Shown here piece after piece: positions 1-24,454 of a stretch of 27,354 nucleotides of DNA. Each line of letters begins with the position of its first letter. The stretch's first letter is position 1. The position numbers and the translations under genes are program-made. Location of the stretch: IMG/VR virus record IMGVR_UViG_2703719365_000004, positions 1-27,354 of that record. One strand, given 5' to 3'. The notes beneath the pieces were generated by a model that had not been told where the DNA came from, did no database searches, and worked only from the letters and a program-made list of their open reading frames with translations. The stretch comes from a virus (Duplodnaviria > Heunggongvirae > Uroviricota > Caudoviricetes).

Positions 1-67
1 GACTTTCCAGAACCATACGAATCGCCCGCTGACGGACTTCGGGGGAAAAACGAGTATTTTTAGTCAT
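1..67 (-). CDS. IS3-family transposase OrfA, N-terminal fragment (gene runs off the window start)
   Basis: Minus-strand ATG (complement of about 65-67) followed by MTKNTRFSPEVRQRAIRMVLES, the characteristic N-terminus of IS629/IS1203 OrfA. Confidence 0.65.
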   Translation of the reverse strand, partial: MTKNTRFSPEVRQRAIRMVLES

Positions 68-121
68 CCTGTTTACCTCTATCTCAGGGAGTTTAGTCTC
101 CAGGATTTCCGGAGCGGTTCA
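1..121 (-). mobile_element. Partial IS3-family insertion sequence (IS629/IS1203-like), left end with terminal inverted repeat; continues beyond the window start
   Basis: Reverse complement of 61-121 reads TGAACCGCTCCGGAAATCCTGGAGACTAAACTCCCTGAGATAGAGGTAAACAGGATGACT, which matches my memory of the IS629 left terminus (TGAACCGCCCCGGGAATCCTGGAGACTAAACTCCCTGAGAAAGAGGTAAACAGGATGACT) with a few mismatches. Recall only, not searched. Confidence 0.7.
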
Positions 122-167
122 GCAATTAACGACGAGCTGTACCTCTCAATTTCGAAGCTGCAGGAGC

Positions 168-380
168 ATGCAGCACTGGTCTACAAAATTTTTTGCATTT
201 CAGAAAGTAATGACGCCCGCGAGTGTGCAGCTCCGGGCGCCGTGGCGTGTCGTGACTGTGGAGAAACTAACGCATGAACAGTTTAACAACACACTACCGT
301 CGCTCGCAACTGATTGCACTTCCTGTACCGGGTGGAAAAGCGAAGGTGGAGTATTGCTATGCAGTGAATGTACCAGGTGA
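168..380 (+). CDS. Hypothetical protein with C-terminal CxxC-x(n)-CxxC zinc-ribbon-like motif; possibly the 3' remnant of a gene cut by the IS
   Basis: ORF-track 70-aa ORF ending [21 protein letters not shown]. The same frame is open back to the IS junction at about 122 with no stop. The ATG at 168 has a poorly spaced SD (AGGAG only 1-2 nt upstream). Confidence 0.3.
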
Positions 381-452
381 CAGGGAAATTGTAACCCACA
401 GCTTTGCAGAGTGGGCTGTGGGTGATTTCAACAGGCAAAAGGAGACAGTCCT

Positions 453-632
453 TTGCGACAAGTTAACCGCTGGTTCAAAGATCACTACGGAGTGCCCGTC
501 AGAGTCATTCGTTGGGAACCGGAAACACAACGGGTTATCTACCTCCGCGAAGGCTATGAGCATGAGTGCTTCAGCCCGCTCGAACAGTTTCGTCGTAAAT
601 TCAGGGAAATAGAGGTCGGTCATGAGCACTAA
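453..632 (+). CDS. Small hypothetical protein (about 59 aa, TTG start), not in the ORF track
   Basis: Frame-0 translation [65 protein letters not shown] at about 437-442 sits 8 nt before the TTG. Codon choice looks host-like and the sequence is globular-looking, unlike the Ser-rich tail of the overlapping frame-1 ORF 274..612. Confidence 0.3.
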
Positions 633-1563
633 ATTAACCGGCTATGTATGGGATGGTTGCGCTGCGTCAGGCATGAAGTTATCCAGCGTGGCAATTATGG
701 CCCGCCTGGCTGATTTCAGTAATGACGAAGGTGTGTGCTGGCCATCAATTGAAACCATTGCCCGCCAGATTGGCGCGGGGATGAGCACCGTCAGAACGGC
801 TATCGCACGGCTGGAAGCAGAAGGCTGGTTAACGCGTAAGGCGCGTCGCCAGGGTAACCGCAATGCGTCGAATGTTTATCAGCTTAACGTTGCGAAGCTT
901 CAGGCAGCGGCATTTTCTCAACTGTCAGATTCTGACCCGTCAAAATCTGACGCATCAAAATCTGACCCGTCAAAATTTGATGCGTCGAAATCTGGCAAAA
1001 AAGCGGGTTTTCACCCGTCAGAATCTGGCGGGGATCCGTCAGTAAAATCAAAACATGATCCGTCAGATAAAAAACCTTCTCGTCCGGACGCTTCGCAACC
1101 GGACACGCAGACGGATGAACAGGATTTTTTAACTCGCCATCCTGATGCGGTTGTATTCAGCCCTAAAAAGCGCCAGTGGGGGACGCAGGATGATTTGACC
1201 TGTGCACAGTGGCTCTGGAAAAAAATCATCGCCCTGTACGAGCATGCCGCCGAATGTGACGGCGAGGTGGTTCGTCCCAAAGAACCGAACTGGACAGCCT
1301 GGGCAAACGAAATTCGCCTGATGTGTGTGCAGGATGGTCGTACTCATAAACAAATCTGCGAGATGTACAGCCGCGTCAGTCGCGATCCGTTCTGGTGCCG
1401 TAACGTGCTCAGCCCGTCGAAGCTGCGGGAAAAATGGGATGAGCTTTCCCTGCGCTTATCGCCGTCCGTCAGCACGTACACCGAAAAACGCGAGGACCCG
1501 TACTTCAAAGCCAGTTACGACAACGTGGACTACAGCCAGATCCCGGCAGGATTCAGGGGGTGA
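622..1563 (+). CDS. Phage replication initiation protein (N-terminal winged-helix/HTH origin-binding domain, repeat-encoded linker, C-terminal domain)
   Basis: 313-aa ORF. N-terminus (IARQIGAGMSTVRTAIARLEAEGWL) looks like an HTH_36-type replication-initiator domain. Sits at the expected O-gene position and contains internal iterons. Confidence 0.85.
   Translation: MSTKLTGYVWDGCAASGMKLSSVAIMARLADFSNDEGVCWPSIETIARQIGAGMSTVRTAIARLEAEGWLTRKARRQGNRNASNVYQLNVAKLQAAAFSQLSDSDPSKSDASKSDPSKFDASKSGKKAGFHPSESGGDPSVKSKHDPSDKKPSRPDASQPDTQTDEQDFLTRHPDAVVFSPKKRQWGTQDDLTCAQWLWKKIIALYEHAAECDGEVVRPKEPNWTAWANEIRLMCVQDGRTHKQICEMYSRVSRDPFWCRNVLSPSKLREKWDELSLRLSPSVSTYTEKREDPYFKASYDNVDYSQIPAGFRG
925..1075 (+). repeat. 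Iteron array (putative origin of replication) embedded in the replication gene
   Basis: Tandem approximately 15-bp units TCTGACCCGTCAAAA / TCTGACGCATCAAAA / TCTGACCCGTCAAAA / TTTGATGCGTCGAAA, then more CCGTCAG-containing copies and A-rich tracts. They encode the repetitive SDPSKSDASKSDPSKFDASKS linker. Layout parallels lambda ori inside gene O. Confidence 0.6.
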
Positions 1564-1565
1564 GC

Positions 1566-2054
1566 ATGAGTCTTTTGAATGACGTTCAGAAATTCATTGA
1601 AGCCCATCCGGGCTGTACTTCCGGAGACATTGCGGATGCTTTTGCAGGTTACTCACGGCAGCGCGTTCTGCAGTCTGCAAGCAAGTTACGTCAGAGTGGG
1701 CGTGTGGCTCACCGTTGTGAAGGGGATACACGCAGACATTTCCCGCGCCTGACTGAGAGAGCGCAGGAGCCGGAACCACAACCAGTTCGTGAAACCAGAC
1801 CTGTGCGCAATTTCTATGTCGGCACTAACGATCCCCGGGTGATTTTGTGCCTGACCCGCCAGGCTGAAGAACTGGAGTCCAGGGGCTTATACCGTCGTGC
1901 TGCAACGGTGTGGATGGCGGCATTCCGTGAAAGCCACTCCCAGCCAGAACGAAACAATTTTCTGGCGCGTCGTGAGCGGTGCTTACGGAAAAGCAGCAAG
2001 CGCGCTGTATCGGGTGAAGAGTGGTATCTGTCAGGGAATTACGTGGGGGCTTAA
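1566..2054 (+). CDS. PerC/ANR-family-like transcriptional regulator (putative)
   Basis: ORF track 1560..2054; ATG at 1566 is preceded by AGGGGG. C-terminal segment AEELESRGLYRRAATVWMAAF...RRERCLRKS resembles the PerC-family motif as I recall it. Family assignment is from memory only. Confidence 0.5.
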   Translation: MSLLNDVQKFIEAHPGCTSGDIADAFAGYSRQRVLQSASKLRQSGRVAHRCEGDTRRHFPRLTERAQEPEPQPVRETRPVRNFYVGTNDPRVILCLTRQAEELESRGLYRRAATVWMAAFRESHSQPERNNFLARRERCLRKSSKRAVSGEEWYLSGNYVGA

Positions 2055-2707
2055 TGAGTAATAAATATTGCCAGGCGCTGGTGGAGCTGCGGAACAAACC
2101 AGCCCATGAACTGAAGGAAGTGGGCGATCAGTGGCGCACGCCGGACAACATTTTCTGGGGAATTAACACCCTGTTTGGCCCGTTTGTTCTGGATCTGTTC
2201 ACTGACGGTGATAACGCCAAATGTGCCGCTTATTACACTGCGGAAGACAACGCGCTGGCGCATGACTGGTCAGAACGTCTTGCGGAGCTTAAAGGTGCTG
2301 CCTTTGGTAATCCCCCATACAGCCGCGCCAGTCAGCATGAGGGGCAATACATCACCGGCATGCGTTACATCATGAAGCATGCCAGTGCCATGCGTGATAA
2401 AGGCGGGCGCTATGTTTTCCTGATCAAAGCTGCCACCAGCGAAGTGTGGTGGCCGGAAGATGCAGATCATATTGCTTTTATTCGCGGGCGTATTGGTTTT
2501 GAACTGCCTGCCTGGTTTATCCCGAAGGATGAGAAGCAGGTGCCGACAGGCGCTTTCTTCGCTGGTGCTATTGCTGTTTTCGACAAGACCTGGAAGGGAC
2601 CGGCAATCAGCTACATCGGGCGCTATGAACTTGAGGCATGTGGTGAGGCCTTTCTGGCGCAGGTTCGCCAGCAGGCAGAAAAACTGGTCAGGGAGATGGC
2701 GGCATGA
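2054..2707 (+). CDS. Phage DNA N6-adenine methyltransferase (Dam-like)
   Basis: Catalytic NPPY motif (AAFGNPPYS) in the track translation. ATG at 2054 overlaps the upstream stop (TAATG). Nin-region position typical for phage Dam methylases. Confidence 0.9.
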   Translation: MSNKYCQALVELRNKPAHELKEVGDQWRTPDNIFWGINTLFGPFVLDLFTDGDNAKCAAYYTAEDNALAHDWSERLAELKGAAFGNPPYSRASQHEGQYITGMRYIMKHASAMRDKGGRYVFLIKAATSEVWWPEDADHIAFIRGRIGFELPAWFIPKDEKQVPTGAFFAGAIAVFDKTWKGPAISYIGRYELEACGEAFLAQVRQQAEKLVREMAA

Positions 2708-3030
2708 CGACGTTAACTCAATGCCAGCAGCAGGTGCTGGATATGCTGATTTCTTATCAGAAAGAACGTGGCTTCCCGCCAACCAATCAGGAGGTGGCAA
2801 CCATGCTGGGATACCGTTCAGTGAATGCAGCGGTGGAGCATCTTCGCGCACTGGAGAAAAAAGGCGTCATCACGATAAAGCGTGGCGTGGCCCGGGGGAT
2901 AACGCTTCATATCGCGGTGAAGGACGACGACAGCGAGGCGGTCGGGATTATCCGCGCACTGCTTGCCGGTGAGGAAAACGCAAGGCTGCGTGCAACCCAC
3001 TGGTTACATGAGAGGGACCTGAAAGTATGA
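2704..3030 (+). CDS. LexA-like DNA-binding protein (LexA N-terminal winged-helix domain only; no S24 peptidase domain)
   Basis: MTTLTQCQQQVLDMLISYQKERGFPPTNQEVATMLGYRSVNAAVEHLRALEKKGVITIKRGVARGITLH aligns with the LexA N-terminus ([58 protein letters not shown]...). The protein ends after 108 aa without the Ala-Gly cleavage site or Ser/Lys dyad region. Confidence 0.85.
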   Translation: MTTLTQCQQQVLDMLISYQKERGFPPTNQEVATMLGYRSVNAAVEHLRALEKKGVITIKRGVARGITLHIAVKDDDSEAVGIIRALLAGEENARLRATHWLHERDLKV

Positions 3031-3416
3031 AGCTGATCCTGCCTTTTCCGCCCAGCGTGAACACGTACTGGCGACACCCCAACAAAGGGGCGTTTGCTGG
3101 TAAGAGCCTGATAAGCGCGGCGGGGCGAAAATTCCAGAGCGCGGCGTGCGCAGCAATAGTTGAGCAGTTACGTCGTCTGCCGAAACCAACGTCGGCACCT
3201 GCTTCAGTGGAGATCGTGTTGTTTCCTCCGGATAACCGGATCCGCGATCTGGACAACTATAACAAGGCGCTGTTTGACGCCCTGACCCACGCGGGTGTGT
3301 GGGAAGACGACAGTCAGGTGAAAAGAATGCTGGTGGAGTGGGGACCGGTTATCCCGGAAGGGAAGGTCGAGATCACTATCAGTAAGTACGAGAAAACGGC
3401 GGGTGCAGCCGCCTGA
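3027..3416 (+). CDS. rusA: Holliday-junction resolvase RusA
   Basis: 129-aa ORF starting MKLILPFPPSVNTYWRHP with the conserved acidic residues (DLDNYNKALFDAL) typical of RusA. Nin-region context. Confidence 0.9.
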   Translation: MKLILPFPPSVNTYWRHPNKGAFAGKSLISAAGRKFQSAACAAIVEQLRRLPKPTSAPASVEIVLFPPDNRIRDLDNYNKALFDALTHAGVWEDDSQVKRMLVEWGPVIPEGKVEITISKYEKTAGAAA

Positions 3417-3435
3417 TTAAGAGGAGAAACGAAGT

Positions 3436-4245
3436 ATGAATAATCTGATGGTCATTGATGGTATTGAAGTTCGTCGTGATGCTTATGGGCGTTACAGCCT
3501 GAACGATCTGCATCGCGCAGCAGTAGCATCTGGTGCAAATGCCAGAACCAAGGAGCCGGGAAAGTTTCTTTCCAGCCAACAAACTGTTGAGCTTGTTCAT
3601 GAATTGACCAACACCCAGAATTTGGGTGTTGACCCGGTGAGTGTGATTCATGGGGGAAATGAACGGGGAACGTATGTCTGCAAGGAACTGGTGTATGCCT
3701 ATGCAATGTGGATCAGCCCGTCATTCCATCTGAAGGTGATCCGTACTTTCGATATGGTAACCAGCGCACCGGAAAAATTATCCGGACAGGCTGCTGACAA
3801 GATGCAGGCTGGCGTGATCCTGCTGGACTTTATGCGCCGGGAGTTAAACCTGTCTAACTCTTCAGTGCTTGGTGCCTGTCAGAAACTCCAGGAGGCTGTT
3901 GGCTTACCGAATCTGGCACCGCGCTATGCCATTGATGCTCCTGCTGACGCGCCTGATGGCTCAAGCCGCCCCACGCTATCATTGAGTGCACTGCTGAAGC
4001 AGTATGGTATCCGCCTGACAGCTAATCAGGCATATCACCAGATGGCGAAGCTGGGGATCGTTGAACAACGTGAACGATACAGCCGCACTGCGATTAACAA
4101 CATCAAAAAATTCTGGTCGCTGACAGCGAAAGGCTGCATGTTCGGCAAGAACATCACCAGTCCCGCAAATCCGCGCGAGACGCAGCCGCATTTCTTCGAA
4201 TCCCGATTCCCTGAGCTGTTAAAGCTGCTCGATACCGTTCATTGA
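3436..4245 (+). CDS. KilA-N domain protein (antirepressor-like)
   Basis: N-terminus MNNLMVIDGIEVRRDAYGRYSLNDLHRA...YAMWISPSFHLKVI is a typical KilA-N domain. AGGAG-type RBS (GAGGAGAAACGAAGT) upstream. Confidence 0.85.
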   Translation: MNNLMVIDGIEVRRDAYGRYSLNDLHRAAVASGANARTKEPGKFLSSQQTVELVHELTNTQNLGVDPVSVIHGGNERGTYVCKELVYAYAMWISPSFHLKVIRTFDMVTSAPEKLSGQAADKMQAGVILLDFMRRELNLSNSSVLGACQKLQEAVGLPNLAPRYAIDAPADAPDGSSRPTLSLSALLKQYGIRLTANQAYHQMAKLGIVEQRERYSRTAINNIKKFWSLTAKGCMFGKNITSPANPRETQPHFFESRFPELLKLLDTVH

Positions 4246-4246
4246 G

Positions 4247-5242
4247 GTGACCGTGAGAGCACTACTGACTCCTGAAATTGCCCCGCGTATGGGGATCGTA
4301 TTGTTCAGGCCAGGTTCAGAGCTGATGCCCCTGTTTATGCAGGGGCGTGTCCTGCTGGAGCCTGAGCCGGAACGTTATTCATCTTTCGCCAGTGGTGCCG
4401 TTCCGGCGGCATCACAACCGCTGGCGGATGATCCTGCCGTTCGGGCCGTGTTCCGCAATGAGGCAGTGATCCGTCGTGCTGGTGGCGTGGAATGTCTTGA
4501 AAGCTGGTTACTTCGTGAAAAAGGCTGCCAGTGGCCTCATTCCGACTGGCACAGCGAGAACATGACCACAATGCGACACGCTCCGGGCGCAATCCGTCTG
4601 TGCTGGCACTGCGATAACCAGCTGCGCGATCAGTTCACGGAACGGCTGGAATCAATGGCAACGGATAACTGTGCCCGCTGGGTGTTGTCTGTTGTGCGTC
4701 GGGATCTCGGTTTTGATGACAGTCACGTTGTGACAATGCCGGAACTGTGCTGGTGGCTGATTCGTAATGACCTGGCGGATGCCTTACCGGAAAGTGCAGC
4801 CCGTAAGGCACTTAGATTACCGAAGCCTGTTGTGCCGTCTGTTACCCGGGAAAGTGACCTTGTGCCTTCGGTTCCTGCCACCAGCATCATCCAGGATAAA
4901 GCGAAAAAGGTGCTGGCGCTGAAAGTGGATCCTGAGTCGCCGGAGTCTTTTATGTTACGCCCAAAACGTCGCCGCTGGGTTAATGAAAAGTACACGCGCT
5001 GGGTTAAGACACAGCCGTGTGCATGTTGTGGAAAGCCTGCTGATGATCCCCACCACCTGATAGGTCACGGTCAGGGAGGAATGGGTACAAAAGCGCATGA
5101 CCTCTTTGTGTTGCCTTTGTGCAGAAAGCATCACGACGAGCTGCATGCGGATACCGTGGCATTTGAAGAGAAGTATGGCTCCCAGCTGGAGCTGATATTT
5201 CGTTTTATCGATCGTGCGCTGGCAATAGGCGTACTGGCGTAA
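4247..5242 (+). CDS. DUF968-domain protein (YdfU-like)
   Basis: 331-aa ORF with C-terminal Cys/His cluster CACCGKPADDPHHLIGHGQGGMGTKAHDLFVLPLCRKHHDELH. Lies immediately upstream of a Q-like gene, as YdfU does in the Qin prophage of E. coli K-12. GTG start is presumed to be translationally coupled. Confidence 0.8.
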   Translation: MTVRALLTPEIAPRMGIVLFRPGSELMPLFMQGRVLLEPEPERYSSFASGAVPAASQPLADDPAVRAVFRNEAVIRRAGGVECLESWLLREKGCQWPHSDWHSENMTTMRHAPGAIRLCWHCDNQLRDQFTERLESMATDNCARWVLSVVRRDLGFDDSHVVTMPELCWWLIRNDLADALPESAARKALRLPKPVVPSVTRESDLVPSVPATSIIQDKAKKVLALKVDPESPESFMLRPKRRRWVNEKYTRWVKTQPCACCGKPADDPHHLIGHGQGGMGTKAHDLFVLPLCRKHHDELHADTVAFEEKYGSQLELIFRFIDRALAIGVLA

Positions 5243-5255
5243 GTGGAGAACGAGC

Positions 5256-6008
5256 ATGAACTTTGAAGCCTTACCGAAATATTACTCCCCAAAATCTCCA
5301 AAATTGAGCGATGACGCACCGGCGACAGGCTCTGGTGGTTTAACAATTACGGATGTAATGGCTGCGCAGGGGATGGTGCAGTCGAAAGCACCGCTTGGGT
5401 TTGCCTTATTCCTGGCAAAAGTTGGTGTTCAGGATCCTCAGTTTGCGATTGAAGGTCTGCTCAATTACGCGATGGCACTGGATAACCCGACATTGAACAA
5501 ATTGAGTGAAGAAACCCGGCTACAGATCATTCCTTACCTTGTGAATTTTGCCTTTGCTGATTATTCCAGGTCTGCGGCAAGTAAGGCTCGCTGTGAGCAT
5601 TGTGCTGGTACTGGATTTCATGATGTATTGCGCGAGGTGGTGAAACACTCCAGAAGCGGGGAATCTGTTATCAAGGAAGAGTGGGTGAAGGAACTGTGTC
5701 AGCATTGTCATGGTAAGGGAGAAGTCAGCACAGCGTGCAGAGGGTGTAAGGGTAAAGGTATTGTCCTGGATGAAAAAAGAACCAGGCTTCATGGCACGCC
5801 TGTTTATAAGGTTTGTGGGCGTTGCAATGGAAACCGGTTTAGCCGTTTACCAACCACACTGGCGCGGCTTCATGTCCAGAAGCTGGTACCAGACCTGACG
5901 GATTATCAGTGGTACAAAGGATATGCAGATGTCATTGATAAACTGGTTACAAAGTGCTGGCAGGAAGAAGCGTATGCTGAGACACAATTGAGGAAAGTGA
6001 CGAGATGA
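5256..6008 (+). CDS. Late-gene antitermination protein Q (QuuQ/YdfT-like, with DnaJ-like CxxCxGxG zinc-finger repeats)
   Basis: 250-aa ORF with CEHCAGTG, CQHCHGKG, CRGCKGKG and CGRCNGNR motifs. Located just upstream of a strong promoter-plus-terminator unit and the lysis genes. Confidence 0.8.
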   Translation: MNFEALPKYYSPKSPKLSDDAPATGSGGLTITDVMAAQGMVQSKAPLGFALFLAKVGVQDPQFAIEGLLNYAMALDNPTLNKLSEETRLQIIPYLVNFAFADYSRSAASKARCEHCAGTGFHDVLREVVKHSRSGESVIKEEWVKELCQHCHGKGEVSTACRGCKGKGIVLDEKRTRLHGTPVYKVCGRCNGNRFSRLPTTLARLHVQKLVPDLTDYQWYKGYADVIDKLVTKCWQEEAYAETQLRKVTR

Positions 6009-6037
6009 ATGATTTTCGACGAAAATGGCGACATGAT

Positions 6038-6068
6038 GCTTGCATTTTTCAAAAAAAATGGATAATAT
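6038..6068 (+). promoter_or_regulatory. Putative late promoter PR' (with presumed qut region) downstream of Q
   Basis: -35 TTGCAT, 17-bp spacer (TTTTCAAAAAAAATGGA), -10 TAATAT, about 30 bp after the Q stop codon. An intrinsic terminator follows roughly 50 nt further on. Confidence 0.5.
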
Positions 6069-6113
6069 TTTCTCAATGATAGGCATTGTGTGTCCGGCTT
6101 TAATAAAAAGTAG

Positions 6114-6141
6114 AAAACCCGCTGATGTGCGGGTTTTTTTT
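6114..6141 (+). terminator. Rho-independent terminator (tR'-like) after the PR' leader
   Basis: AAAACCCGC-TGATGT-GCGGG followed by a run of eight T. Confidence 0.65.
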
Positions 6142-6219
6142 CGGAATTTTAGATGTGTGGCATTGAAATGGTATTCGGCGAGTAGGTAGAATTTAAACTT
6201 TCGTCTCGTCTGGATCGAC

Positions 6220-6762
6220 ATGATGTTTCAAGCCTTCCAAACAGCAGTATTTAAAAATGTTGCAGAGTATTTAAAAGGGCGCTTCCCTCATAAGTCGTTA
6301 GGGCTCGTATATGCCGACGAGCTGGTACTAAAAGATATGGAGTTCCTCAAGGCTAACAATAAACTGCGGTGGGATCCCGGACTAAAGTCGCGAGTGTTTA
6401 TGGATATGATGGAAGAACACCCGATAAAACTAGTTGTTTATTATCGTGGGGAGCCTATTGGATTTGCATTTGGGTGTTACTGTAAGCCGAAAAATGCGGT
6501 GCATATTTGCTGGATGGAAAAACGTAATGATGCACATGAAGACCTAGACCATCAGATGCTTGGTATCGTTTTGGATTGCTTCTCTGCATATGCACGATTT
6601 CTGAACCTTCAGGGTGAATCTATTGATTCGATAGCTTTAGTTAGTCCAGTTGATGGGGCAATAAGATACTATACTGAAAGTGGTTTTGAGTACATTGCTG
6701 ATTACGAACGAGGTGGTTGCGCAATGGTGCTTAGGAGCGTTTTACCTAACCAATCAGTGTGA
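6220..6762 (+). CDS. Cargo (moron) protein, GNAT-fold acyltransferase-like, function unknown
   Basis: 180-aa ORF in a visibly AT-rich block. The C-terminus (AIRYYTESGFEYIADYERGGCAMVLRS) resembles the GNAT C-terminal helix/strand and QMLGIV sits where motif A (Q/R-x-x-G-x-G/A) would be. Its own sigma70-like promoter (-35 TTGAAA, 18 bp, -10 TAGAAT) lies at about 6170-6200. No good SD. Confidence 0.6.
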   Translation: MMFQAFQTAVFKNVAEYLKGRFPHKSLGLVYADELVLKDMEFLKANNKLRWDPGLKSRVFMDMMEEHPIKLVVYYRGEPIGFAFGCYCKPKNAVHICWMEKRNDAHEDLDHQMLGIVLDCFSAYARFLNLQGESIDSIALVSPVDGAIRYYTESGFEYIADYERGGCAMVLRSVLPNQSV

Positions 6763-6953
6763 GTTAGATTCTTAATTTCTCCAGAATCATTACAAAAGTA
6801 TTGAAAACCTCTTTTAGTTGATGCAATCTGGATCCACACAAAGCACACACAAAATGTACTACGCTTTACTTTATACATCTTCAGGTAACAAACTTTGTTG
6901 CCTTTATGCTTCAAAGAAGCAACTACAGCTTAGTGCTGAACAAGGGGATTTTT

Positions 6954-7139
6954 ATGAAACATCATGAGCAGATAGAGATTGAGGCAGCTAAAGTCGTCGC
7001 CGAACTCTTTGCTGGCAATGCATCTCCAATGGAAACCTTTGGTATTACATGGAGTCAAACTCAGATGTTAGAGCGTAAGAATCCTGGTGTAGTGATCAAA
7101 CTAGTACCGGATGACGGTAAAAAACTTGCGTATTGCTGA
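6954..7139 (+). CDS. Small hypothetical cargo protein (about 61 aa) co-located with the GNAT-like gene
   Basis: ORF track 6906..7139. The internal ATG at 6954 (MKHHEQIEIE...) has a strong SD (AAGGGGA, about 7 nt spacing). AT-rich codon usage matches the upstream gene. Confidence 0.5.
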   Translation: MKHHEQIEIEAAKVVAELFAGNASPMETFGITWSQTQMLERKNPGVVIKLVPDDGKKLAYC

Positions 7140-7197
7140 TAATTTTTAAAGATTTTTTCAGCTAGAGAATCGATTATTTTACTATAAATCGCGAAGG

Positions 7198-15904: not shown

Positions 15905-15950
15905 ACGCCGCGTAATGCGGTTTTTTTGTGCCCGCGTTCTGGCGGGCACA
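15905..15950 (+). terminator. Tandem hairpins after the major capsid gene (putative partial terminator)
   Basis: CCGC-GTAAT-GCGG followed by TTTTTTT, then a perfect 8-bp stem GTGCCCGC-GTTCTG-GCGGGCAC immediately before the AGGAGG RBS of the next gene. Confidence 0.45.
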
Positions 15951-15959
15951 GGAGGTTTT

Positions 15960-16283
15960 ATGCTGTTAAAAATGGAAGAGATTAAGCTTCAGCTCCGTCT
16001 GGATGATGATTTCTCTGATGAAGATGAGTTGCTTGAACTGCTTGGTAAGGCCGCTCAGAGTCGTACGGAAAACTTCCTTAACCGTAAGTTGTATGCAACC
16101 GCAGATGACAGGCCTGCGGATGATCCTGATGGGCTTGTGATATCTGATGATGTGAAGCTGGCACTTCTGCTACTTGTCAGCCATTTCTACGAAAACCGCT
16201 CAACGGTTACAGACGTTGAGAAAATGGAGTTGCCAATGAGTTTTAACTGGTTGGTTGCTCCTTATCGCCTTATACCACTATGA
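15960..16283 (+). CDS. Head-tail connector protein (gp6-like DNA-packaging/head completion protein)
   Basis: ORF track 15915..16283. ATG at 15960 follows AGGAGG. Translation MLLKMEEIKLQLRLDDDFSDEDELLELL...VSHFYENR resembles the gp6-like connector family. Confidence 0.8.
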   Translation: MLLKMEEIKLQLRLDDDFSDEDELLELLGKAAQSRTENFLNRKLYATADDRPADDPDGLVISDDVKLALLLLVSHFYENRSTVTDVEKMELPMSFNWLVAPYRLIPL

Positions 16284-16690
16284 AAATTCGTCAGGCGCAG
16301 ACCAGCGCAACCTACATACTGCCGGACCCCGGCGAACTGAATAAACGCGTCCTGATCCGCCAGCGGGTGGATATGCCCGCGGATAACTTTGGCGTGGAGC
16401 CTCAATACCCGGTTGCGTTCCGGGCATGGGCGAAGGTTATCCAGACCAGTGCCACCACCTGGCAGGAAACCGCGCAGACCGGGGACGCCATCACCCATTA
16501 CATCACCATTCGCTACCGCCGCGGGATCACTGCTGATTATGAGGTGGTCTGTGATGACAGTGTGTACCGGGTGAAACGTCAGCGCGATCTGAACGGGGCG
16601 CGGCGCTTTCTGCTGCTGGAGTGTACGGAACTGGGCGAATTTACGCAGAGTCACGGAGGCAGCAATGGCGACTCCCTTTTTTCACGTTGA
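16280..16690 (+). CDS. Head-tail adaptor / head closure protein
   Basis: 136-aa ORF overlapping the upstream stop (ATGA), in the conserved order after the gp6-like gene. Confidence 0.7.
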   Translation: MKIRQAQTSATYILPDPGELNKRVLIRQRVDMPADNFGVEPQYPVAFRAWAKVIQTSATTWQETAQTGDAITHYITIRYRRGITADYEVVCDDSVYRVKRQRDLNGARRFLLLECTELGEFTQSHGGSNGDSLFSR

Positions 16691-17171
16691 TGTTCAGCAG
16701 CCCGCCGAGATGCGCTTTAACCGCGCCCGTGTCCGGCGGGCGTTTGTCACGATTGGGCAGCGTCATATGCGTGATGCCCGTCGGCTGGTGATGCGCCGTG
16801 CGCGGTCGGCACCGGGTGAAAACCCCGGTTATCAGACCGGACGCCTGGCTCGTTCGATTGGTTACATGGTGCCGAGAGCCAGTAAAAAGCGAGCCGGTTT
16901 TATGACACGCATTGCCCCTAACCAGCGCAACGGGAAGGGGAACCGGATGATCTCTGGTGACTTCTATCCGGCGTTTCTGTTTTTTGGTGTCCGGGGAGGA
17001 GCAAAACGTCGTCGTAGTCATCATCGTGGTGCATCCGGTGGCAGCGGCTGGCGGCTGGCTCCACGTAATAACTTTATGGTGGAAACGCTTGAAAAGAACC
17101 GCAGCTGGACACGCTATTTTCTGGCGCGAGAATTACGTAAATCACTGAAGCCTGAGCGACGACGCAGATGA
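16665..17171 (+). CDS. HK97 gp10-like head-tail joining / tail-completion protein
   Basis: 168-aa basic protein with GGAGG RBS. Positional and compositional similarity to the HK97 gp10 family. Confidence 0.7.
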   Translation: MATPFFHVDVQQPAEMRFNRARVRRAFVTIGQRHMRDARRLVMRRARSAPGENPGYQTGRLARSIGYMVPRASKKRAGFMTRIAPNQRNGKGNRMISGDFYPAFLFFGVRGGAKRRRSHHRGASGGSGWRLAPRNNFMVETLEKNRSWTRYFLARELRKSLKPERRRR

Positions 17172-17728
17172 AACTGACGCCTGTTATTGCTGCGCTGCGT
17201 GCCCGCTGCCCGTATTTTGAAAACCGGGTGGCAGGCGCGGCACAGTTCAAAAATCTGCCGGAGGTCGGAAAGCTGAGACTCCCGGCGGCGTATGTGGTAC
17301 CGGGTGATGACTCTCCGGGAGAAAACAAAAGCCAGACCGACTACTGGCAGGAGCTGAAAGAGGGCTTCTCCGTGGTTGTCATACTGAGTAACGGGCGTGA
17401 TGAGCTCGGTCAGTTTGCTTCGTATGATGTGGTGGACGATGTCCGGCAGATGCTCTTTAAGGCCTTGCTGGGCTGGAACCCGGAAGCGTGCGGTAACCCG
17501 ATTACCTATGACGGCGGCACGCTGCTGGATCTGAATCGTCATGAGCTGATTTATCAGTTCGATTTTTCGGTCATCAGCGAGCTGACTGAAGACGATACCC
17601 GCCAGCAGGATGATCTGAACAGTCTGGATGAACTGCAAACGCTGGCGATTGATGTTGATTATCTCGAGCCCGGTAACGGGCCTGACGGCGATATCGAACA
17701 TCACACCGAAATAACCCTTCCTTCCTGA
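17168..17728 (+). CDS. Tail terminator / tail completion protein (Mu-like tail module), putative
   Basis: 186-aa acidic ORF immediately upstream of the small DUF2635-like ORF and the sheath gene. Assigned by position and gene order only. Confidence 0.55.
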   Translation: MKLTPVIAALRARCPYFENRVAGAAQFKNLPEVGKLRLPAAYVVPGDDSPGENKSQTDYWQELKEGFSVVVILSNGRDELGQFASYDVVDDVRQMLFKALLGWNPEACGNPITYDGGTLLDLNRHELIYQFDFSVISELTEDDTRQQDDLNSLDELQTLAIDVDYLEPGNGPDGDIEHHTEITLPS

Positions 17729-17736
17729 GGATCCTC

Positions 17737-17907
17737 ATGTTTGTCAAACCTGTTAAAGGGCGGTCAGTGCCTGACCCTGCCCGCGGCGACCTTTTGCCCG
17801 CCGAAGGGCGAAATGTTGACGAGAACAACTACTGGCTGCGCCGTGAAGCAGCGGGTGATATCCGGCGCGTGAATAAAAAGGTGAACACCGATGACGATAA
17901 GCTTTAA
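17737..17907 (+). CDS. Small conserved protein (DUF2635-like) preceding the tail sheath gene, not in the ORF track
   Basis: ATG at 17737 follows TGAGGA. Translation MFVKPVKGRSVPDPARGDLLPAEGRNVDENNYWLRREAAGDIRRVNKKVNTDDDKL matches my memory of short proteins found before sheath genes in Mu-like tail clusters. Confidence 0.5.
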   Translation: MFVKPVKGRSVPDPARGDLLPAEGRNVDENNYWLRREAAGDIRRVNKKVNTDDDKL

Positions 17908-19387
17908 CACCATTCCGTCGAATACGCTGGTTCCGTTGTTTTATGCGGAAATGGATAACCAGGCGGCGAATACTGCACAGGACAGCGGAGCATCGCTGCT
18001 GATTGGTCATGCCAATAACGGTGCAGAGATTGTTGCCAACAGTCTGGTACTGATGTCGTCGGCAGACTATGCACGCCAGATTTGTGGTGCGGGAAGTCAG
18101 CTGGCGCGTATGGTCGAGGCTTATCGCCAGACTGACCCGTTTGGCGAGCTGTATGTGATTGCCGTTCCTGAATCCACAGGTGCGGCGGCAACAGTTACGC
18201 TGACGGTGACCGGGGCGGCAACCGAAACCGGCACGGTGAATGTGTATGTAGGACGTACCCGCGTGCAGGCACCGGTGACTAACGGCGATAACGTCACGAT
18301 GATTGCCAGCAGTATCCAGGATGCCATCAATGCCGTTCCGACCCTGCCGTTTACGGCTTCATCTTTGGCAGGCGTGGTCACACTGACCGCGCGTCATAAG
18401 GGGCTTTGTGGGAATGAAATTCCTGTCAGCCTCAATTACTACGGCTTTGGTGGGGGCGAAGTGCTGCCAGCGGGCGTACAGATTGCCGTGGCGACGGGTA
18501 CCGCCGGAACGGGTGCTCCGGTTCTCACCGGCGCGGTGGCTGCAATGGCGGATGAGCCGTTTGATTATATCGGCCTGCCGTTCAACGACACGGCCTCCGT
18601 TAACACGCTGGTGACCGAGATGAACGATACCAGCGGTCGCTGGAGCTATGCGCGTCAGCTGTATGGTCATGTGTATACGGCAAAGATCGGCACGCTGTCA
18701 GAACTGGTGACCGCAGGTGACCAGTTTAACCAGCAGCACATTACCCTGGCGGGGTACGAAAAAGAGACCCAGACGCCTGCCGACGAGCTGGCGGCAAGCC
18801 GTACCGCCCGCGCAGCGGTGTTTATCCGCAACGATCCGGCACGTCCCACGCAGACCGGTGAGCTGGTGGGTATGCTGCCTGCGCCGAAGGGGAAACGGTT
18901 CACGATGACCGAACAACAGACCCTGCTGTCTCATGGCGTGGCAACGGCGTATGTCGAAAGCGGGGTACTACGCATTCAGCGTGATGTCACCACGTACAGG
19001 AAAAACGCTTACGGGGTTGCGGATAACAGTTACCTCGACAGTGAGACGCTGCATACCAGCGCGTATGTACTGCGCAAACTGAAATCCGTCATTACCAGTA
19101 AGTACGGGCGTCACAAGCTTGCCAGTGACGGTACCCGCTTTGGTCCCGGTCAGGCGATTGTCACCCCGGCGGTGATCAAAGGGGAACTGCTGGCAACCTA
19201 CCGTCAGCTTGAGCGTGCGGGGATCGTGGAAAACTACGAACTGTTTAAGCAGTACCTGGTTGTGGAGCGTGATGCCAGCGATCCGAACCGCCTGAACACG
19301 CTGTTCCCGCCTGACTATGTTAACCAGCTGCGTGTCTTTGCCGTGGTTAATCAGTTCCGTCTTCAGTATTCAGAGGAGTCTGCATAA
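17891..19387 (+). CDS. Tail sheath protein (Mu gpL-like)
   Basis: 498 aa, the size and position of a contractile-tail sheath protein, directly followed by the tube gene. Confidence 0.9.
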   Translation: MTISFNTIPSNTLVPLFYAEMDNQAANTAQDSGASLLIGHANNGAEIVANSLVLMSSADYARQICGAGSQLARMVEAYRQTDPFGELYVIAVPESTGAAATVTLTVTGAATETGTVNVYVGRTRVQAPVTNGDNVTMIASSIQDAINAVPTLPFTASSLAGVVTLTARHKGLCGNEIPVSLNYYGFGGGEVLPAGVQIAVATGTAGTGAPVLTGAVAAMADEPFDYIGLPFNDTASVNTLVTEMNDTSGRWSYARQLYGHVYTAKIGTLSELVTAGDQFNQQHITLAGYEKETQTPADELAASRTARAAVFIRNDPARPTQTGELVGMLPAPKGKRFTMTEQQTLLSHGVATAYVESGVLRIQRDVTTYRKNAYGVADNSYLDSETLHTSAYVLRKLKSVITSKYGRHKLASDGTRFGPGQAIVTPAVIKGELLATYRQLERAGIVENYELFKQYLVVERDASDPNRLNTLFPPDYVNQLRVFAVVNQFRLQYSEESA

Positions 19388-19743
19388 TGGCCCGTATCGG
19401 GGGAACCTGTTATTTCAAAATTGACGGTCAGCAGCTATCGCTGACCGGCGGCATTGAGGTGCCCATGAACAAAACGGTTAACGATGACATCATCGGCCTG
19501 GACGGTTCAGTGGACCGCAAGGAAACTCACCGTGCGCCTTATGTCAAAGGGACCTTCAAGGTGCCGAAGAATTTTCCGGTAAGCAAAATCACCTCGTCTG
19601 ATGAGATGACCATCACTGCCGAGCTGGCGAACGGTCAGGTCTATGTACTGTCGTCTGCCTGGCTGCACGGCGAAGCGAACCATAATGCCGAAGAAGGCAC
19701 GGTTGATCTTGAGTTCCACGGTGAAGAAGGGGATTACCAGTAA
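19387..19743 (+). CDS. Tail tube protein (Mu gpM-like)
   Basis: 118 aa, MARIGGTCYFKIDGQQLSLTGG..., start overlapping the sheath stop. Conserved sheath-tube order. Confidence 0.9.
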   Translation: MARIGGTCYFKIDGQQLSLTGGIEVPMNKTVNDDIIGLDGSVDRKETHRAPYVKGTFKVPKNFPVSKITSSDEMTITAELANGQVYVLSSAWLHGEANHNAEEGTVDLEFHGEEGDYQ

Positions 19744-20012
19744 TGAAAGAGCTTGAGTTAAAGAAACCGATTACTGCTCATGGCGAGACACTCTCCGTAC
19801 TGGAGTTTGATGAACCCACCGGGAAGGATGTCCGCGAGCTGGGGTATCCCTACCAGATGAATCAGGATGAGTCAGTCAGACTTCTGGCGCATGTGGTGTC
19901 GAAATACATTGTGCGGCTGGCGAAAGTGCCGCAAAGCTCTGTCGACCAGATGTCTCCGGCAGACCTGAATGCAGCGGCGTGGCTTGTGGCTGGTTTTTTC
20001 CTCCAGGCCTGA
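19743..20012 (+). CDS. Tail assembly chaperone (upstream frame, G-like)
   Basis: 89-aa ORF between the tube and tape-measure genes. Contains the slippery heptamer TTTTTTC near its 3' end. Confidence 0.8.
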   Translation: MKELELKKPITAHGETLSVLEFDEPTGKDVRELGYPYQMNQDESVRLLAHVVSKYIVRLAKVPQSSVDQMSPADLNAAAWLVAGFFLQA

Positions 20013-20167
20013 CGGCTGAATACCTCACTGATCGCTTCTTTGACTGCGCCAGCTACTGGCGCATTAATCCTTTCGAATTGCTGAATATGCCGATCAGTGA
20101 AATTCCCTTGCTGGTCAGTCAGGCAAACAGGATAGAGCAGGAGAAACGCACACATGGCGGAATTTGA
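19979..20167 (+). CDS. Tail assembly chaperone, -1 frame extension (GT-like frameshift product segment)
   Basis: Overlapping ORF in the -1 frame relative to 19743..20012. It is reached from the slippery site T_TTT_TTC (about 19994-20000) and ends just inside the tape-measure gene start. Confidence 0.5.
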   Translation: MACGWFFPPGLTAEYLTDRFFDCASYWRINPFELLNMPISEIPLLVSQANRIEQEKRTHGGI

Positions 20168-21989
20168 GCTTAAGGCGTTGATCACCGGTGTCGACAGGCT
20201 TTCTCCCGCGCTGTCGAAAATGCAAAAGAAAATCCGGGGATTTAAACGCCAGGCGGAAGAAGCGTCACAGGGTGGGCTGGCGCTTGGTGGCGGACTGGCA
20301 GCGGGTCTGACGCTTTCCCTGAAATCTTATGCCGATCAGGAAAACGCCGCCACCGGGCTGAAAGTCGCCATGATGGATGCGAACGGCGAGGTTGGAAAGA
20401 GCTTTCAGGACATCAATAAACTGGCTATTGGCCTGGGTAACCAGCTACCCGGTACAACGGCTGATTTCCAGAACATGATGCAGATGCTGGTGCGTCAGGG
20501 GATCCCGGCAGAAAACATTCTTGGCGGTGTGGGTAAAGCGACAGCTTATCTTGCGGTACAACTGAAAAAAACACCGGAAGCGGCTGCTGAGTTTGCTGCA
20601 AAGATGCAGGATGCTACCGGAACGGCGTCAGAAGACATGATGGGGCTGTTCGACACTATCCAGAAGGCGTTTTATCTGGGTGTTGACGATACCAACATGT
20701 TGTCCTTCTTCACTAAAACCAGCTCTGTTCTGAAGATGGTGAACAAGGACGGTCTTCAGGCTGCACAGAGCCTTGCCCCCATCAGCGTCATGATGGATCA
20801 GATGGGGATGAACGGGGAGTCGGCAGGTAACGCCCTGCGAAAAGTTATCCAGTCCGGATTAAGCGTTAAGAAAATCAGGGACGTCAATAAAATCATGGCC
20901 CGCCAGAAACTCGGGGTACAGCTCGATTTTACTGACGGCAAAGGAAGTTTTGGCGGTCTTGATAACATGTTCAGGCAACTGGCAAAGCTGCGAAAACTGA
21001 CCGACGTTAAGCGAACAGGTGTACTTAAGGCAATATTTGGTGATGATGCCGAAACCCTTCAGGTGGTCAATGCACTAATCGATAAAGGAAAGGATGGCTA
21101 CGATCAGATCCAGCAGAAGATGAATAAACAGGCCAGCCTGAATAAACGTGTTCAGGCCCAGCTTGGTACGCTGTCCAACCTGTGGGAGGCAATGACGGGG
21201 ACCGCAACTAACGGCCTTGCGGCTATTGGCGGCGCATTTTCTGGTGACGCCAAAAATATCACGCAATGGCTGGGGGAGTTAGGGGAAAAATTCACGAAGT
21301 TTGCGGATGAAAATCCCCGGGTTATTCGCGGCGTCGTCGGGCTTGCTGCCGGTCTTGCGATTCTGAAACTGGGATTGATGGGCGTTGGCGGTGCCATCAG
21401 TATTGTCAGCAGGATCATGTCGATGACGCCGATTGGAATGATTGCGACGGCGATAGCCCTGGCTGCGGGATTAATTATCACTAACTGGGATGTTGTCGGA
21501 CCTTATTTCAAGAAGCTCTGGGAAACCATTGGTCCTTATTTTGAGGCTGGCTGGGAACTTCTGAAGAAGGTTTTTGCCTGGTCGCCGCTGGGGATGGTAA
21601 TCAATAACTGGGGACCGGTTGTTAAGTGGTTTCAGGATATGTGGGACAAACTGAAGCCAATTATTGAGTGGTTTACCGACAGTTCCGGTGACACGGTCGA
21701 TGCCATTAACTCTGCGCAGTGGGGCGCGGGTGCTTATGATGCTTATGGGACGGGAATACCGGCACGGGGATACACACCTTATCAGGCGGTAGATCCGGCT
21801 CAGTCAAACAACGCCTCCGGTGCCACAGGCCCGAATCCCTTCATGATTAACAAAGCTTCTGCGCCAAAAGTTGATGGTGAGATCAAGGTCTCTTTTGTGA
21901 ATTCGCCTCCGGGTATGCGGGTTATGGAAACGCGATCCAGCGGTTTTGATGTCAGCCATGATGTTGGCTATACGCGCTTTGGCAGGTAA
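20154..21989 (+). CDS. Tail tape measure protein
   Basis: 611 aa, Ala/Gly-rich helical protein with C-terminal hydrophobic segments. Follows the frameshifted chaperone pair. Confidence 0.9.
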   Translation: MAEFELKALITGVDRLSPALSKMQKKIRGFKRQAEEASQGGLALGGGLAAGLTLSLKSYADQENAATGLKVAMMDANGEVGKSFQDINKLAIGLGNQLPGTTADFQNMMQMLVRQGIPAENILGGVGKATAYLAVQLKKTPEAAAEFAAKMQDATGTASEDMMGLFDTIQKAFYLGVDDTNMLSFFTKTSSVLKMVNKDGLQAAQSLAPISVMMDQMGMNGESAGNALRKVIQSGLSVKKIRDVNKIMARQKLGVQLDFTDGKGSFGGLDNMFRQLAKLRKLTDVKRTGVLKAIFGDDAETLQVVNALIDKGKDGYDQIQQKMNKQASLNKRVQAQLGTLSNLWEAMTGTATNGLAAIGGAFSGDAKNITQWLGELGEKFTKFADENPRVIRGVVGLAAGLAILKLGLMGVGGAISIVSRIMSMTPIGMIATAIALAAGLIITNWDVVGPYFKKLWETIGPYFEAGWELLKKVFAWSPLGMVINNWGPVVKWFQDMWDKLKPIIEWFTDSSGDTVDAINSAQWGAGAYDAYGTGIPARGYTPYQAVDPAQSNNASGATGPNPFMINKASAPKVDGEIKVSFVNSPPGMRVMETRSSGFDVSHDVGYTRFGR

Positions 21990-22049
21990 TGAAAAATTAA
22001 TCTGTTAATGAGTCCCACTCCGGTGGGATTTTTTATGTACGGAGTTTAT

Positions 22050-23378
22050 ATGACGTGGAAAGACAGACTTCAGGACGCGTCATTTCGCGGTGTGCCGTTT
22101 AAGGTTGAAGAAGAAAGTGCGGGAACCGGTCGTCGTGTGGAAACGCACGAATACCCGAACCGCGACAAACCCTATACCGAAGACCTGGGGAAAATCACTT
22201 TCCGCCCGTCCATCACAGCTTATGTGGTGGGAGATGACTGCTTTGACCAGCGCGATCGCCTGATTGACGCGCTGAATAAACCCGGTCCCGGCACGCTTGT
22301 CCATCCGACTTACGGTGAGCTGAAAGTCTGTGTTGACGGGGAAGTTCGGGTCAGCACATCGAAGAGTGAAGGGCGTATTGTCCGCTTTGACCTGAAGTTT
22401 GTCGAAGCGGGAGAACTCTCTTACCCCACTTCAGGTGCGGCGACGGCGCAGACGCTGATGTCATCCTGTTCTGCACTGGATGACTGCATCAGTGACAGCT
22501 TCAGTGGTTTCAGTATCGATGGCGTGGCAGATTTTGTGCAGAACGACGTCGTCGGTAATGCCAGCACAATGCTTGGGTATGTTTCTGATGCGATGAAAGT
22601 GGTGGATTCTGCCGTATCGGATGCCGCCAGGCTGTTGCAGGGGGATATCTCGGTACTTCTGCCGCCACCATCGTCAGGCAAAAATTTCGTTGAGCAGGTG
22701 CAGAAAATGTGGCGTACCGGGAAACGCCTTTATGGTAACGCCAGCGACCTGGTCACCATGATCAAAACGCTTTCCGGTGTCAGCCTCGGCAGCGATCTGC
22801 AACCGCGCGGCGTCTGGAAAACGGACAGTAAAACTACCGCCACGGCGACGCAGCAGCGTAACGTGGTTGCCAGCACCCTTCGTACGACCGCAATCAGCGA
22901 AGCGGCGTATGCCGTCACACGATTGCCTGCGCCCACAACTTCCGCGGTGATGCAGAATGCCACAGTAGGGCAGTCAACAACACCCGCGCAGAGCACCGGC
23001 TGGCCTTCTGTCACGCATCCGGCACTGAACAATGCACCGGCGGTGAAAAACACGGTTGACCTGCCAACGTGGGAAGAACTGACCGACATTCGCGACACAC
23101 TGAATACGGCAATTGATAAGGAGTTGTCCCGTACAACCAGTGATGCGCTGTTTCTGGCGCTGCGCCGGGTGAAAGCAGATCTGAATGCGGATATCAACAC
23201 GCGCCTTGAACAGTCTGCACGGATCATTCAGCGCACGCCGGATGAGGTTTTACCCGCGCTGGTGCTGGCGGCGACCTGGTTTGATAACGCGGCGCGTGAC
23301 GCGGACATTATCCGGCGTAATGCCATTACGCATCCCGGCTTTGTGCCGGTGATCCCTCTGAAGGTGCCAGTGCAATGA
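22050..23378 (+). CDS. DNA circulation protein (Mu gpN-like)
   Basis: ORF track 22008..23378; probable start at the ATG at 22050 (MTWKDRLQDASFRGVPFKVEE...). Follows the tape-measure gene as in Mu-like tail modules. Confidence 0.8.
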   Translation: MTWKDRLQDASFRGVPFKVEEESAGTGRRVETHEYPNRDKPYTEDLGKITFRPSITAYVVGDDCFDQRDRLIDALNKPGPGTLVHPTYGELKVCVDGEVRVSTSKSEGRIVRFDLKFVEAGELSYPTSGAATAQTLMSSCSALDDCISDSFSGFSIDGVADFVQNDVVGNASTMLGYVSDAMKVVDSAVSDAARLLQGDISVLLPPPSSGKNFVEQVQKMWRTGKRLYGNASDLVTMIKTLSGVSLGSDLQPRGVWKTDSKTTATATQQRNVVASTLRTTAISEAAYAVTRLPAPTTSAVMQNATVGQSTTPAQSTGWPSVTHPALNNAPAVKNTVDLPTWEELTDIRDTLNTAIDKELSRTTSDALFLALRRVKADLNADINTRLEQSARIIQRTPDEVLPALVLAATWFDNAARDADIIRRNAITHPGFVPVIPLKVPVQ

Positions 23379-24454
23379 ACGACAATGTCACGCTACGGGT
23401 AAATGGCCGGGAGTGGAATGGCTGGACATCGGTGCGCATCGGTGCCGGTATTGAACGGCTGGCGCGGGATTTCAGTGTGGAGATCACTCGCCAGTGGCCG
23501 GGAGATGAGGGTATCACCACGCTTCAGCCGCGCATTAAAAACGGTTCAAAAGTGGAAGTGCTGATTGGTGATGAGCTGGTGATCACCGGCTGGGTGGAGG
23601 CGACTCCCGTTCGTTACGATGCCCGTTCGGTCAGCACCGGTATTGCCGGACGTAGTCTGACGGCTGACCTGATTGACTGTGCAGCCGAACCGACACAGTT
23701 TAACGGACGCTCGCTGGTGCAGATTGCGCAGGCGCTTGCTGCGCCTTTCGGCATTGAGGTGGTGAACAGCGGTGCGCCGTCGGGTGTTATTCCTGATGTT
23801 CAGCCTGATCACGGTGAAACGGTGATTGAGGTTATCAACAAAATACTCGGTCAGCAGCAGGCGCTGGCTTACGACGATCCGCACGGCAGGCTGGTGATTG
23901 GCGGTATTGGCTCAACGCGGGCACATACCGCGCTGGTACTTGGGGAAAACATCCTTTCCTGTGATACGGAGAAGAGTATCCGGGAGCGGTTTTCTGTTTA
24001 CCAGGTGGCGGGGCAGCGTGCCGGAAACGACGATGATTTCGGTGAGGTCACCACCACCGCGCTGCGGGCCCGCACAGAGGACGCATTTATTGCCCGTTAC
24101 CGTCCGATGTATATCAGGCAGACAGGGCAGGCCACGGGGGCAGGCTGTATTGCGCGTGCTGACTTTGAAGCCCGACAACGGGCGGCGCGGACGGATGAAA
24201 CCACCTATGTGGTGCAGGGCTGGCGACAGGGTAACGGTACGCTGTGGCAGCCCAACCAGCGGGTGATTGTCTTCGATCCAGTCTGTGGTTTCGACAATAC
24301 CGAACTGCTTGTCTCGGAAGTCACGTTTACTCAGGACCAGAACGGCACCCTGACGGAAATCCGTGTCGGCCCGCCTGATGCTTATCTGCCTGAACCCGAA
24401 GCCCCCGGCGCGCGGAAAAAGAAAAAAGCCAGAGTACAGGAGGACCCGTTCTGA
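23375..24454 (+). CDS. Baseplate hub / tail protein (Mu gpP-like)
   Basis: 359-aa ORF with overlapping start, in conserved Mu-like order (N, P, gp45, gp46, gp47, gp48). Confidence 0.8.
   Translation: MNDNVTLRVNGREWNGWTSVRIGAGIERLARDFSVEITRQWPGDEGITTLQPRIKNGSKVEVLIGDELVITGWVEATPVRYDARSVSTGIAGRSLTADLIDCAAEPTQFNGRSLVQIAQALAAPFGIEVVNSGAPSGVIPDVQPDHGETVIEVINKILGQQQALAYDDPHGRLVIGGIGSTRAHTALVLGENILSCDTEKSIRERFSVYQVAGQRAGNDDDFGEVTTTALRARTEDAFIARYRPMYIRQTGQATGAGCIARADFEARQRAARTDETTYVVQGWRQGNGTLWQPNQRVIVFDPVCGFDNTELLVSEVTFTQDQNGTLTEIRVGPPDAYLPEPEAPGARKKKKARVQEDPF

Follow-up and report, generated by a model that had tools for sequence, protein, structure and literature searches.

The window, by which we mean the whole stretch of 27,354 nucleotides analysed here, begins inside an insertion sequence. 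Positions 1..121, on the minus strand, are the left (IRL-side) end of an IS3-family element of the IS629/IS1203 type, as judged by their identity to full copies of IS629 in Escherichia coli O157:H7; PGAP names such elements 'IS3-like element IS1203 family transposase' and the O157 literature calls them IS629 (PMC3271280), the name we use below. From position 121 the terminus 5'-TGAACCGCTCC... leads leftwards, and the remainder of the element lies beyond the window edge. The minus strand from 121 to 1 starts with TGAACCGCTCCGGAAATCCTGGAGACTAAACTCCC..., a terminal inverted repeat of the TG...CA type with the IS629 IRL sequence, and the reverse complement of 1..121 reads TGAACCGCTCCGGAAATCC... 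and then reaches the orfA ATG at 67..65 (minus strand), which is preceded by a GAGG ribosome-binding site. The visible part of orfA (2..67, minus strand), cut by the window edge, comprises its first 22 codons, encoding the peptide MTKNTRFSPEVRQRAIRMVLES, an N-terminus of the HTH_Tnp_1 type, and all 22 residues are those that start OrfA in the 1310-bp IS of locus L005, where the reading frame begins about 55 nucleotides from the end. OrfA of that copy, 108 amino acids long, matches PF01527, and both its OrfA and its OrfB match the NCBIfam model transpos_IS3, OrfB with 316 bits at a cut-off of 160.

At the DNA level the window end shares 120 of 121 bases with the first 121 of two IS629 copies in the O157:H7 locus L009, where the IS629 copy is flanked by the 3-bp duplication GTC, and 119 of 121 with the L005 copy, which has the 3-bp duplication CCA; a more distant IS3-family relative found in L003 and L006 matches it at 112 of 121 positions. 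Alike in 119-120 of these terminal bases, in the 22 OrfA residues and in the TG...CA terminus, our element differs from the O157:H7 IS629 in that a single end is visible here and in that it carries substitutions at IS positions 9 and 41. The first of these (window 113) is a C to T change within the terminal repeat, which is present by itself in both IS copies of L009 (CP044350.1), and the second (window 81) is an A to T change just 5' of the orfA ribosome-binding site. The substitutions at 81 and 113 were found together in no IS629/IS1203 copy of the 5,426 complete RefSeq E. coli genomes, the best match being 75/77.

To the right of the IS, the DNA is that of a well-represented prophage. The last IS base is the terminal A at 121, and megablast of the left window end against phages and the 5,426 complete E. 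coli genomes gave many IS-free matches, 98-100% identical, from 120 onward, bearing out the first-pass annotation, which had put an IS629-like terminus at about 121. The alignments begin at 120 and not at 122 because the target bases before GCA happen to be CA, the same as the IS end. The IS-free matches include the Shigella phages SfII and SfIV and the prophage of many O157:H7 strains, and window 122..25000 is about 100% identical to the O157:H7 prophage adjoining proA/thrW (45,927-45,944 bits over 24,879 bases). Occupancy of the thrW/proA site differs between O157:H7 lineages: in Sakai (L036, NC_002695.2 300042..310627) it holds Sp1, a different and heavily degraded lambdoid remnant, which we considered and rejected as a copy of the present prophage.

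In the IS-free locus L001, from strain 7784, the site of the junction lies within ymfL, a gene of 183 amino acids that overlaps the end of cro and whose counterpart in SfII is annotated as cII. The insertion point is ymfL codon 133 (GCA), which follows immediately on the IS terminus; without the IS, the allele reads ...GAGAAGACA GCA ATTAAC, and in a three-way alignment the uninterrupted sequence is ...CATGAGAAGACA GCA ATTAACGAC.... The GCA at 122..124 (plus strand) is a candidate 3-bp target-site duplication of which the right-hand copy is visible, as suggested by the IS-free allele and by the duplications in L009 and L005. Window 122..277 (plus strand), a 3' remnant of this gene for a CII-like regulator, equals L001 4003-4158, the end of ymfL (WP_000515845.1, 183 aa), with 0 DNA mismatches, and its frame 2 translates exactly into YmfL residues 133-183, that is 51 residues, followed by the TGA stop. 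The suggestion that the IS had entered a phage gene and left a 3' fragment was thus correct, and comparison with the IS-free relatives places the break at ymfL codon 133; judged from this alignment, the IS interrupts the phage gene ymfL and does not lie in intergenic DNA. When the junction was modelled with the L009 IS copy, frame 2 stayed open for just 135 nucleotides into the IS and contained no ATG, GTG or TTG before a GTG at 242. Lacking a start codon in this model, the 51-codon ymfL remnant would therefore be untranslatable, and from its reading frame 122..277 is best treated as a ymfL pseudogene fragment without a start codon. Other strain-specific IS copies occur within the same prophage (L003, L005, L006 and L009), and several O157:H7 genomes match the window in two pieces, being 1.3 kb longer. 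As regards both element and site, this is an ordinary strain-specific IS629 insertion, known in kind, with an exact site that is new to the searched collections.

The gene order in IS-free loci is int ... cI, cro, ymfL, DUF4222/ymfM, O, PerC, Dam, LexA-like, RusA, KilA-N, DUF968, antiterminator, lysis and terminase. Accordingly, ymfL in the IS-free relatives has cro, cI and the integrase on its left and the replication, lysis and structural modules on its right. The proposal that the IS separates these modules from an immunity and integration region holds for this layout of the relatives, from which alone it would carry over to the left side of the present copy. The IS does not abut the replication module, as had first been supposed, since the ymfL remnant, ymfM and a DUF4222 gene (together 122..632) intervene before the O-like gene at 622..1563, at a distance of about 500 bp from the IS.

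The ATG of the ymfM homologue (274..612, plus strand; 112 aa) overlaps the ymfL stop codon (ATGA), and 109 of the 112 residues of its product (97%) are those of YmfM of the K-12 prophage e14, annotated as 'cell division inhibitor YmfM'. The gene can therefore be assigned by identity to the characterised K-12 protein, the SOS-inducible division inhibitor of e14, SfiC, whose division-inhibitor function has been demonstrated (bioRxiv 10.1101/2020.11.19.390815). The DUF4222 gene, which has a TTG start and encodes 59 amino acids (453..632, plus strand; PF13973, 67.3 bits at a cut-off of 27; called by PGAP in O157:H7), shares its sequence, read in a different frame, with the second half of ymfM and also overlaps the start of the O-like gene. 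The latter (622..1563, plus strand), encoding an O-like replication initiator of 313 amino acids with a match to Pfam HTH_36, is the first gene of the replication module; it is annotated as 'O protein family' or 'DNA replication protein O' in SfII and other phages, and the exact protein is widespread in E. coli, with 5559 blocks of the collection. An Rfam search of window 1..3000 gave no match.

The overlap of ymfM and the DUF4222 gene is treated unevenly in current annotation, K-12 having ymfM only and PGAP in O157 having DUF4222 only. In 278-452, substitutions that separate the window from its relatives favour ymfM third positions (phiNP 9/12/24), and in 453-612 they favour DUF4222 third positions, which are ymfM second positions (2/2/10 for the Stx2a phage, 0/0/3 for SfII and 0/0/4 for L004). 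This shift towards DUF4222 third positions makes the last ~52 residues of YmfM, as annotated, look unconstrained.

The interrupted gene itself belongs to a known family of regulators. The uninterrupted allele shares 95% identity with the YmfL encoded by e14, the cryptic prophage of K-12, and the full-length YmfL of L001 scored 168.1 bits against NF041471 (YmfL family putative regulatory protein; cut-off 90) and 51.3 bits against PF06892 (Phage_CP76; cut-off 26), the latter over residues 17-150. The 51-residue fragment alone had no Pfam match, because just its first 18 residues (133-150) fall inside the profile-matched part. PF06892 is built around CII of phage 186, an activator that primes repressor synthesis and is required for the establishment of lysogeny (PMC7708051). 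By BLASTP we detected no pairwise similarity between YmfL and 186 CII, and therefore the link between the two rests on the profile models together with gene order and position. In phage 186 (L037 1642..2680) the order apl, cII, fil parallels that of cro, the CII-like gene and the division inhibitor in L001 (3354..4513); YmfM and 186 Fil had no sequence similarity by BLASTP. What the uninterrupted allele has in common with e14 YmfL, the SfII 'cII' and 186 CII lies in its matches to NF041471 and PF06892, in the 95% identity for e14 and in being the gene that SfII calls cII. Thus, ymfL here is a gene of the 186-CII family, placed next after cro in the early-right operon of a prophage resembling e14 and SfII, and by its family it is a putative CII-type activator of repressor establishment. 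Overexpression of ymfL caused no filamentation and that of ymfM did (bioRxiv 10.1101/2020.11.19.390815). In the IS-free early region a single sigma-70-like match was reported, at L001 3735..3764 on the minus strand in early ymfL. It points leftwards from the place at which, to judge from lambda pRE and 186 pE, one would look for an establishment promoter activated by CII; the match (9/12) is weak and does not reach what chance alone would give in this region.

Beyond the IS, a simple insertion would leave the 5' part of ymfL, ended by a TGA in the IS terminus after residue 133 and encoding a product of 133 amino acids. YmfL 1-133 covers positions 5-123 of the 146 in the PF06892 profile and so misses the last 23, whereas residues 10-145 of 186 CII cover profile positions 1-146. 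For 186 CII, the 1-145 form has full activity and is stabilised, and the 1-135 product of natural cleavage has no activity (PMC7708051). Because of the short profile coverage and these truncation data on 186 CII, the truncated YmfL 1-133 is probably inactive.

How the IS came to be joined to ymfL bears on what lies to its left. IS629 makes duplications of 3-4 bp (PMC3271280), and the event would have been an ordinary IS629 transposition with the 3-bp duplication GCA, for which the predicted left junction is ...AAGACAGCA|TGAACCGCC.... A simple insertion is the most economical reading of the junction, the left junction itself lying outside the window. Overall, we consider it very probable that an IRL end sits at ymfL codon 133 through IS629 transposition in a prophage that would consequently be expected to induce poorly. 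Extending the window leftwards by junction searches of genome, viral and metagenome collections yielded no match. The exact 24-mer across the right junction was absent from species-representative genomes, viral contigs and metagenome contigs, and a BLAST search with a junction-spanning query found no contiguous match in the 5,426 complete E. coli genomes; the sole record with at least 80% coverage of that query, from an O111:H8 strain, was set aside as a different insertion, at codon 112. The predicted left-junction 20-mer had 10 matches in the genome, viral and metagenome collections, all of them chance occurrences in ribosome-binding-site/ATG contexts of unrelated bacteria.

Public records with the exact 133-aa sequence, labelled 'YmfL, partial' and located on contigs that stop no more than 2 nucleotides from the site, were considered as support for the predicted left-hand product and rejected: two of the contigs end with GCAAT, which is the IS-free sequence, and the host contexts and prophage backbones differ. 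Moreover, a 133-aa class could arise by chance, as the cluster holds 552 partial YmfL entries and many lengths occur among the 15 listed. In L013-L020, the last bases of eleven public contigs (ymfL nt 398-401) lie no more than 2 nucleotides from the site; three or more different prophage backbones are represented. Neither phage records nor 2,715 records from complete E. coli genomes showed a mosaic breakpoint close to the site, and the alleles compared had no SNP at ymfL nt 400-402, so that a mosaic boundary or an allele SNP was rejected as the cause of these contig ends; given the 552 partial YmfL entries, the ends near the site may be due to chance.

The alternative that survives best is a rearrangement, that is, a deletion, an inversion or a recombination between two IS629 copies, after which the far side of the IS would not be the 5' part of ymfL and the prophage would have lost its own immunity and integration region. 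Such an outcome has a parallel in the O111:H8 locus L022, where the IS1203 in ymfL is followed by a short piece of ymfL, then by another IS fragment and by a deletion that extends to DUF968, and matching duplications were present at just 21 of 47 IS629 sites in O157 genomes (PMC3271280). Since the window starts inside the IS, the far side is unconstrained, and the predicted left junction was found nowhere in the searched collections; this absence carries no information, however, as these collections lack the right junction as well. The right junction falls at the exact IS terminus, as it would in primary transposition, and most O157:H7 genomes with this prophage keep an intact left arm. On balance, we hold a rearrangement to be possible but unlikely. 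An assembly artefact, in which a contig end or a repeat misjoin had created the IS-phage junction, might account for a window that begins within a multicopy repeat, for a junction absent from every collection searched and for two substitutions in 121 IS bases that occur in no complete RefSeq E. coli genome. Nevertheless, the join coincides to the base with the canonical ...CA terminus of the IS, a position seldom hit by random misjoining, the rest of the window is essentially error-free relative to the O157:H7 genomes, and strain-specific IS629 insertions are common in the same prophage, as exemplified by L003, L005, L006, L009 and the genomes with two-piece matches; an artefact is therefore highly improbable.

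A further reading concerns the reading frame at 168..380 (plus strand, frame 3, 70 aa), to which the first-pass annotation had drawn attention as the possible 3' fragment of a gene cut by the IS. As a bare fact of sequence its frame is indeed open back to the junction: frame 3 has no stop in 33-377, the flanking stops being at 30..32 and 378..380, and frame 2 is likewise open across the junction. The product of 168..380 had no Pfam match and corresponded to no recorded gene among 153 billion gene positions, and the frame is unannotated in every relative inspected. In the diverged relatives L021, L022, L023 and L024 its ATG is lost or its frame is interrupted by stops, and these same relatives keep the YmfL tail motif ...DARECAAPG... 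in frame 2. In 278-380, substitutions relative to the relatives fall mainly on codon position 1 of this frame, which is the third position of ymfM. From this pattern, 168..380 is a chance open frame over the ymfL tail and the ymfM start and not a gene. That this frame, extended back in frame 3, is what remains of the cut gene has practically no chance of being right, its openness from 33 to 377 across the junction notwithstanding, given that IS-free genomes encode YmfL in frame 2 here, with the window identical over the last 51 residues, that it matches no family and has never been called in any annotation inspected, and that L021-L024 have lost its start or open frame; the remnant of the interrupted gene is the frame 2 sequence at 122..277.

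Insertions of this kind have precedents. IS629 is the most active IS in O157:H7, with 62% of its copies in prophages or prophage-like elements (PMC3271280). The closest parallel is the prophage of O111:H8 strain 2009C-3675 (NZ_CP077531.1, L022), in which an element of the same IS family, in the same orientation with the transposase antisense, interrupts the homologous gene, annotated by PGAP as a pseudogene without its C-terminus. The two differ in that the L022 insertion is at codon 112 and not 133, in a ymfL allele about 88% identical, and in that L022 has a second IS fragment and a deletion of the replication module, whereas the window keeps the whole right arm. With this homologous precedent of IS1203 in ymfL and a known gene family, the insertion is already known in kind. 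In the Stx prophage of STEC strain PA2, which is of O157 type, the position of IS629 alters induction (Gong et al., NAR 2023, PMC10810198); there a methyltransferase gene is disrupted and the effect was measured, whereas here the gene is that of a CII-like regulator and the effect would follow from gene arrangement. In related prophages, about 600 bp of the early-right operon contain three independent insertions of IS629/IS1203, at ymfL codon 112 (L022 2784..4093), at codon 133 (window 1..121) and just before the ATG of the O gene (L009, CP044350.1, 8686..9993), with the transposase antisense to the operon in all three. It is conceivable, though we consider it rather improbable, that IS629-family elements recurrently hit the interval from ymfL to the O start in antisense orientation and are perhaps kept by selection for silencing the SOS-inducible unit of ymfM, replication and antiterminator genes; if true, this would constitute a recurrent host route to the domestication of e14/SfII-like prophages.

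Under the preferred reading of a simple IS629 insertion, the expected consequence is a polar one. Polar effects of IS elements are classical, and insertions in the cII-O region of lambda are the textbook case: r14 and r32 are insertions of IS elements (IS1 and IS2) in that region which are polar on the replication genes, and in lambda N antitermination partly relieves IS polarity. What our locus has in common with these is an IS downstream of the early-right promoter and upstream of the replication genes, whose expression polarity reduces in lambda and would reduce here; the differences are the phage and the IS types, IS1 and IS2. In the IS-free loci cro, ymfL, ymfM/DUF4222, the O-like gene, PerC, Dam, LexA-like and RusA follow one another with overlaps or hardly any space between them, and the antiterminator gene is located a few genes beyond RusA. 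A crude scan of window 1..1000, with results at or below chance level, reported no sigma-70-like site, and the same scan of the IS-free locus failed to report any promoter in the cI-cro interval. All that the promoter and terminator scans show, being at or below chance level, is the lack of a strong sigma-70 match from the IS to O. Because the genes are packed and the stretch from the IS to the O-like gene yielded no promoter-like site, an antisense IS of 1.3 kb would be expected to cut strongly the transcription of ymfM and of the replication and antiterminator genes after loss of the repressor. Left to itself, the prophage would then induce poorly, though it might be complemented by further lambdoid prophages of the same host. 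That polarity abolishes autonomous induction is thus plausible, as the packing of the genes suggests, and the first-pass remark that the IS would bear on inducibility is reasonable.

The loss of YmfL itself would contribute little to such a phenotype. A 186 prophage lacking cII induces approximately like the wild type, CII not itself being needed for induction (PMC7708051), and therefore, by analogy, loss of YmfL alone should not block induction. It is plausible that any effect on induction arises mainly through polarity on the downstream operon and not through the loss of ymfL. Many lambdoid prophages reside in O157 cells and can complement defective ones, which may still undergo excision, replication and packaging when others help (PMC2669165).

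IS629 in the prophages of O157:H7 is well documented and already used for typing, and the significance of the present insertion beyond annotation and strain typing is small. For annotation, 122..277 should be entered as a pseudogene fragment of ymfL, and no gene should be called at 168..380. With an IS between the early promoter region and the ymfM, replication and antitermination genes, this copy of the prophage should be treated as probably not self-inducible. Were the source strain of interest, the insertion would provide an inexpensive, testable marker and might explain a loss of phage production.
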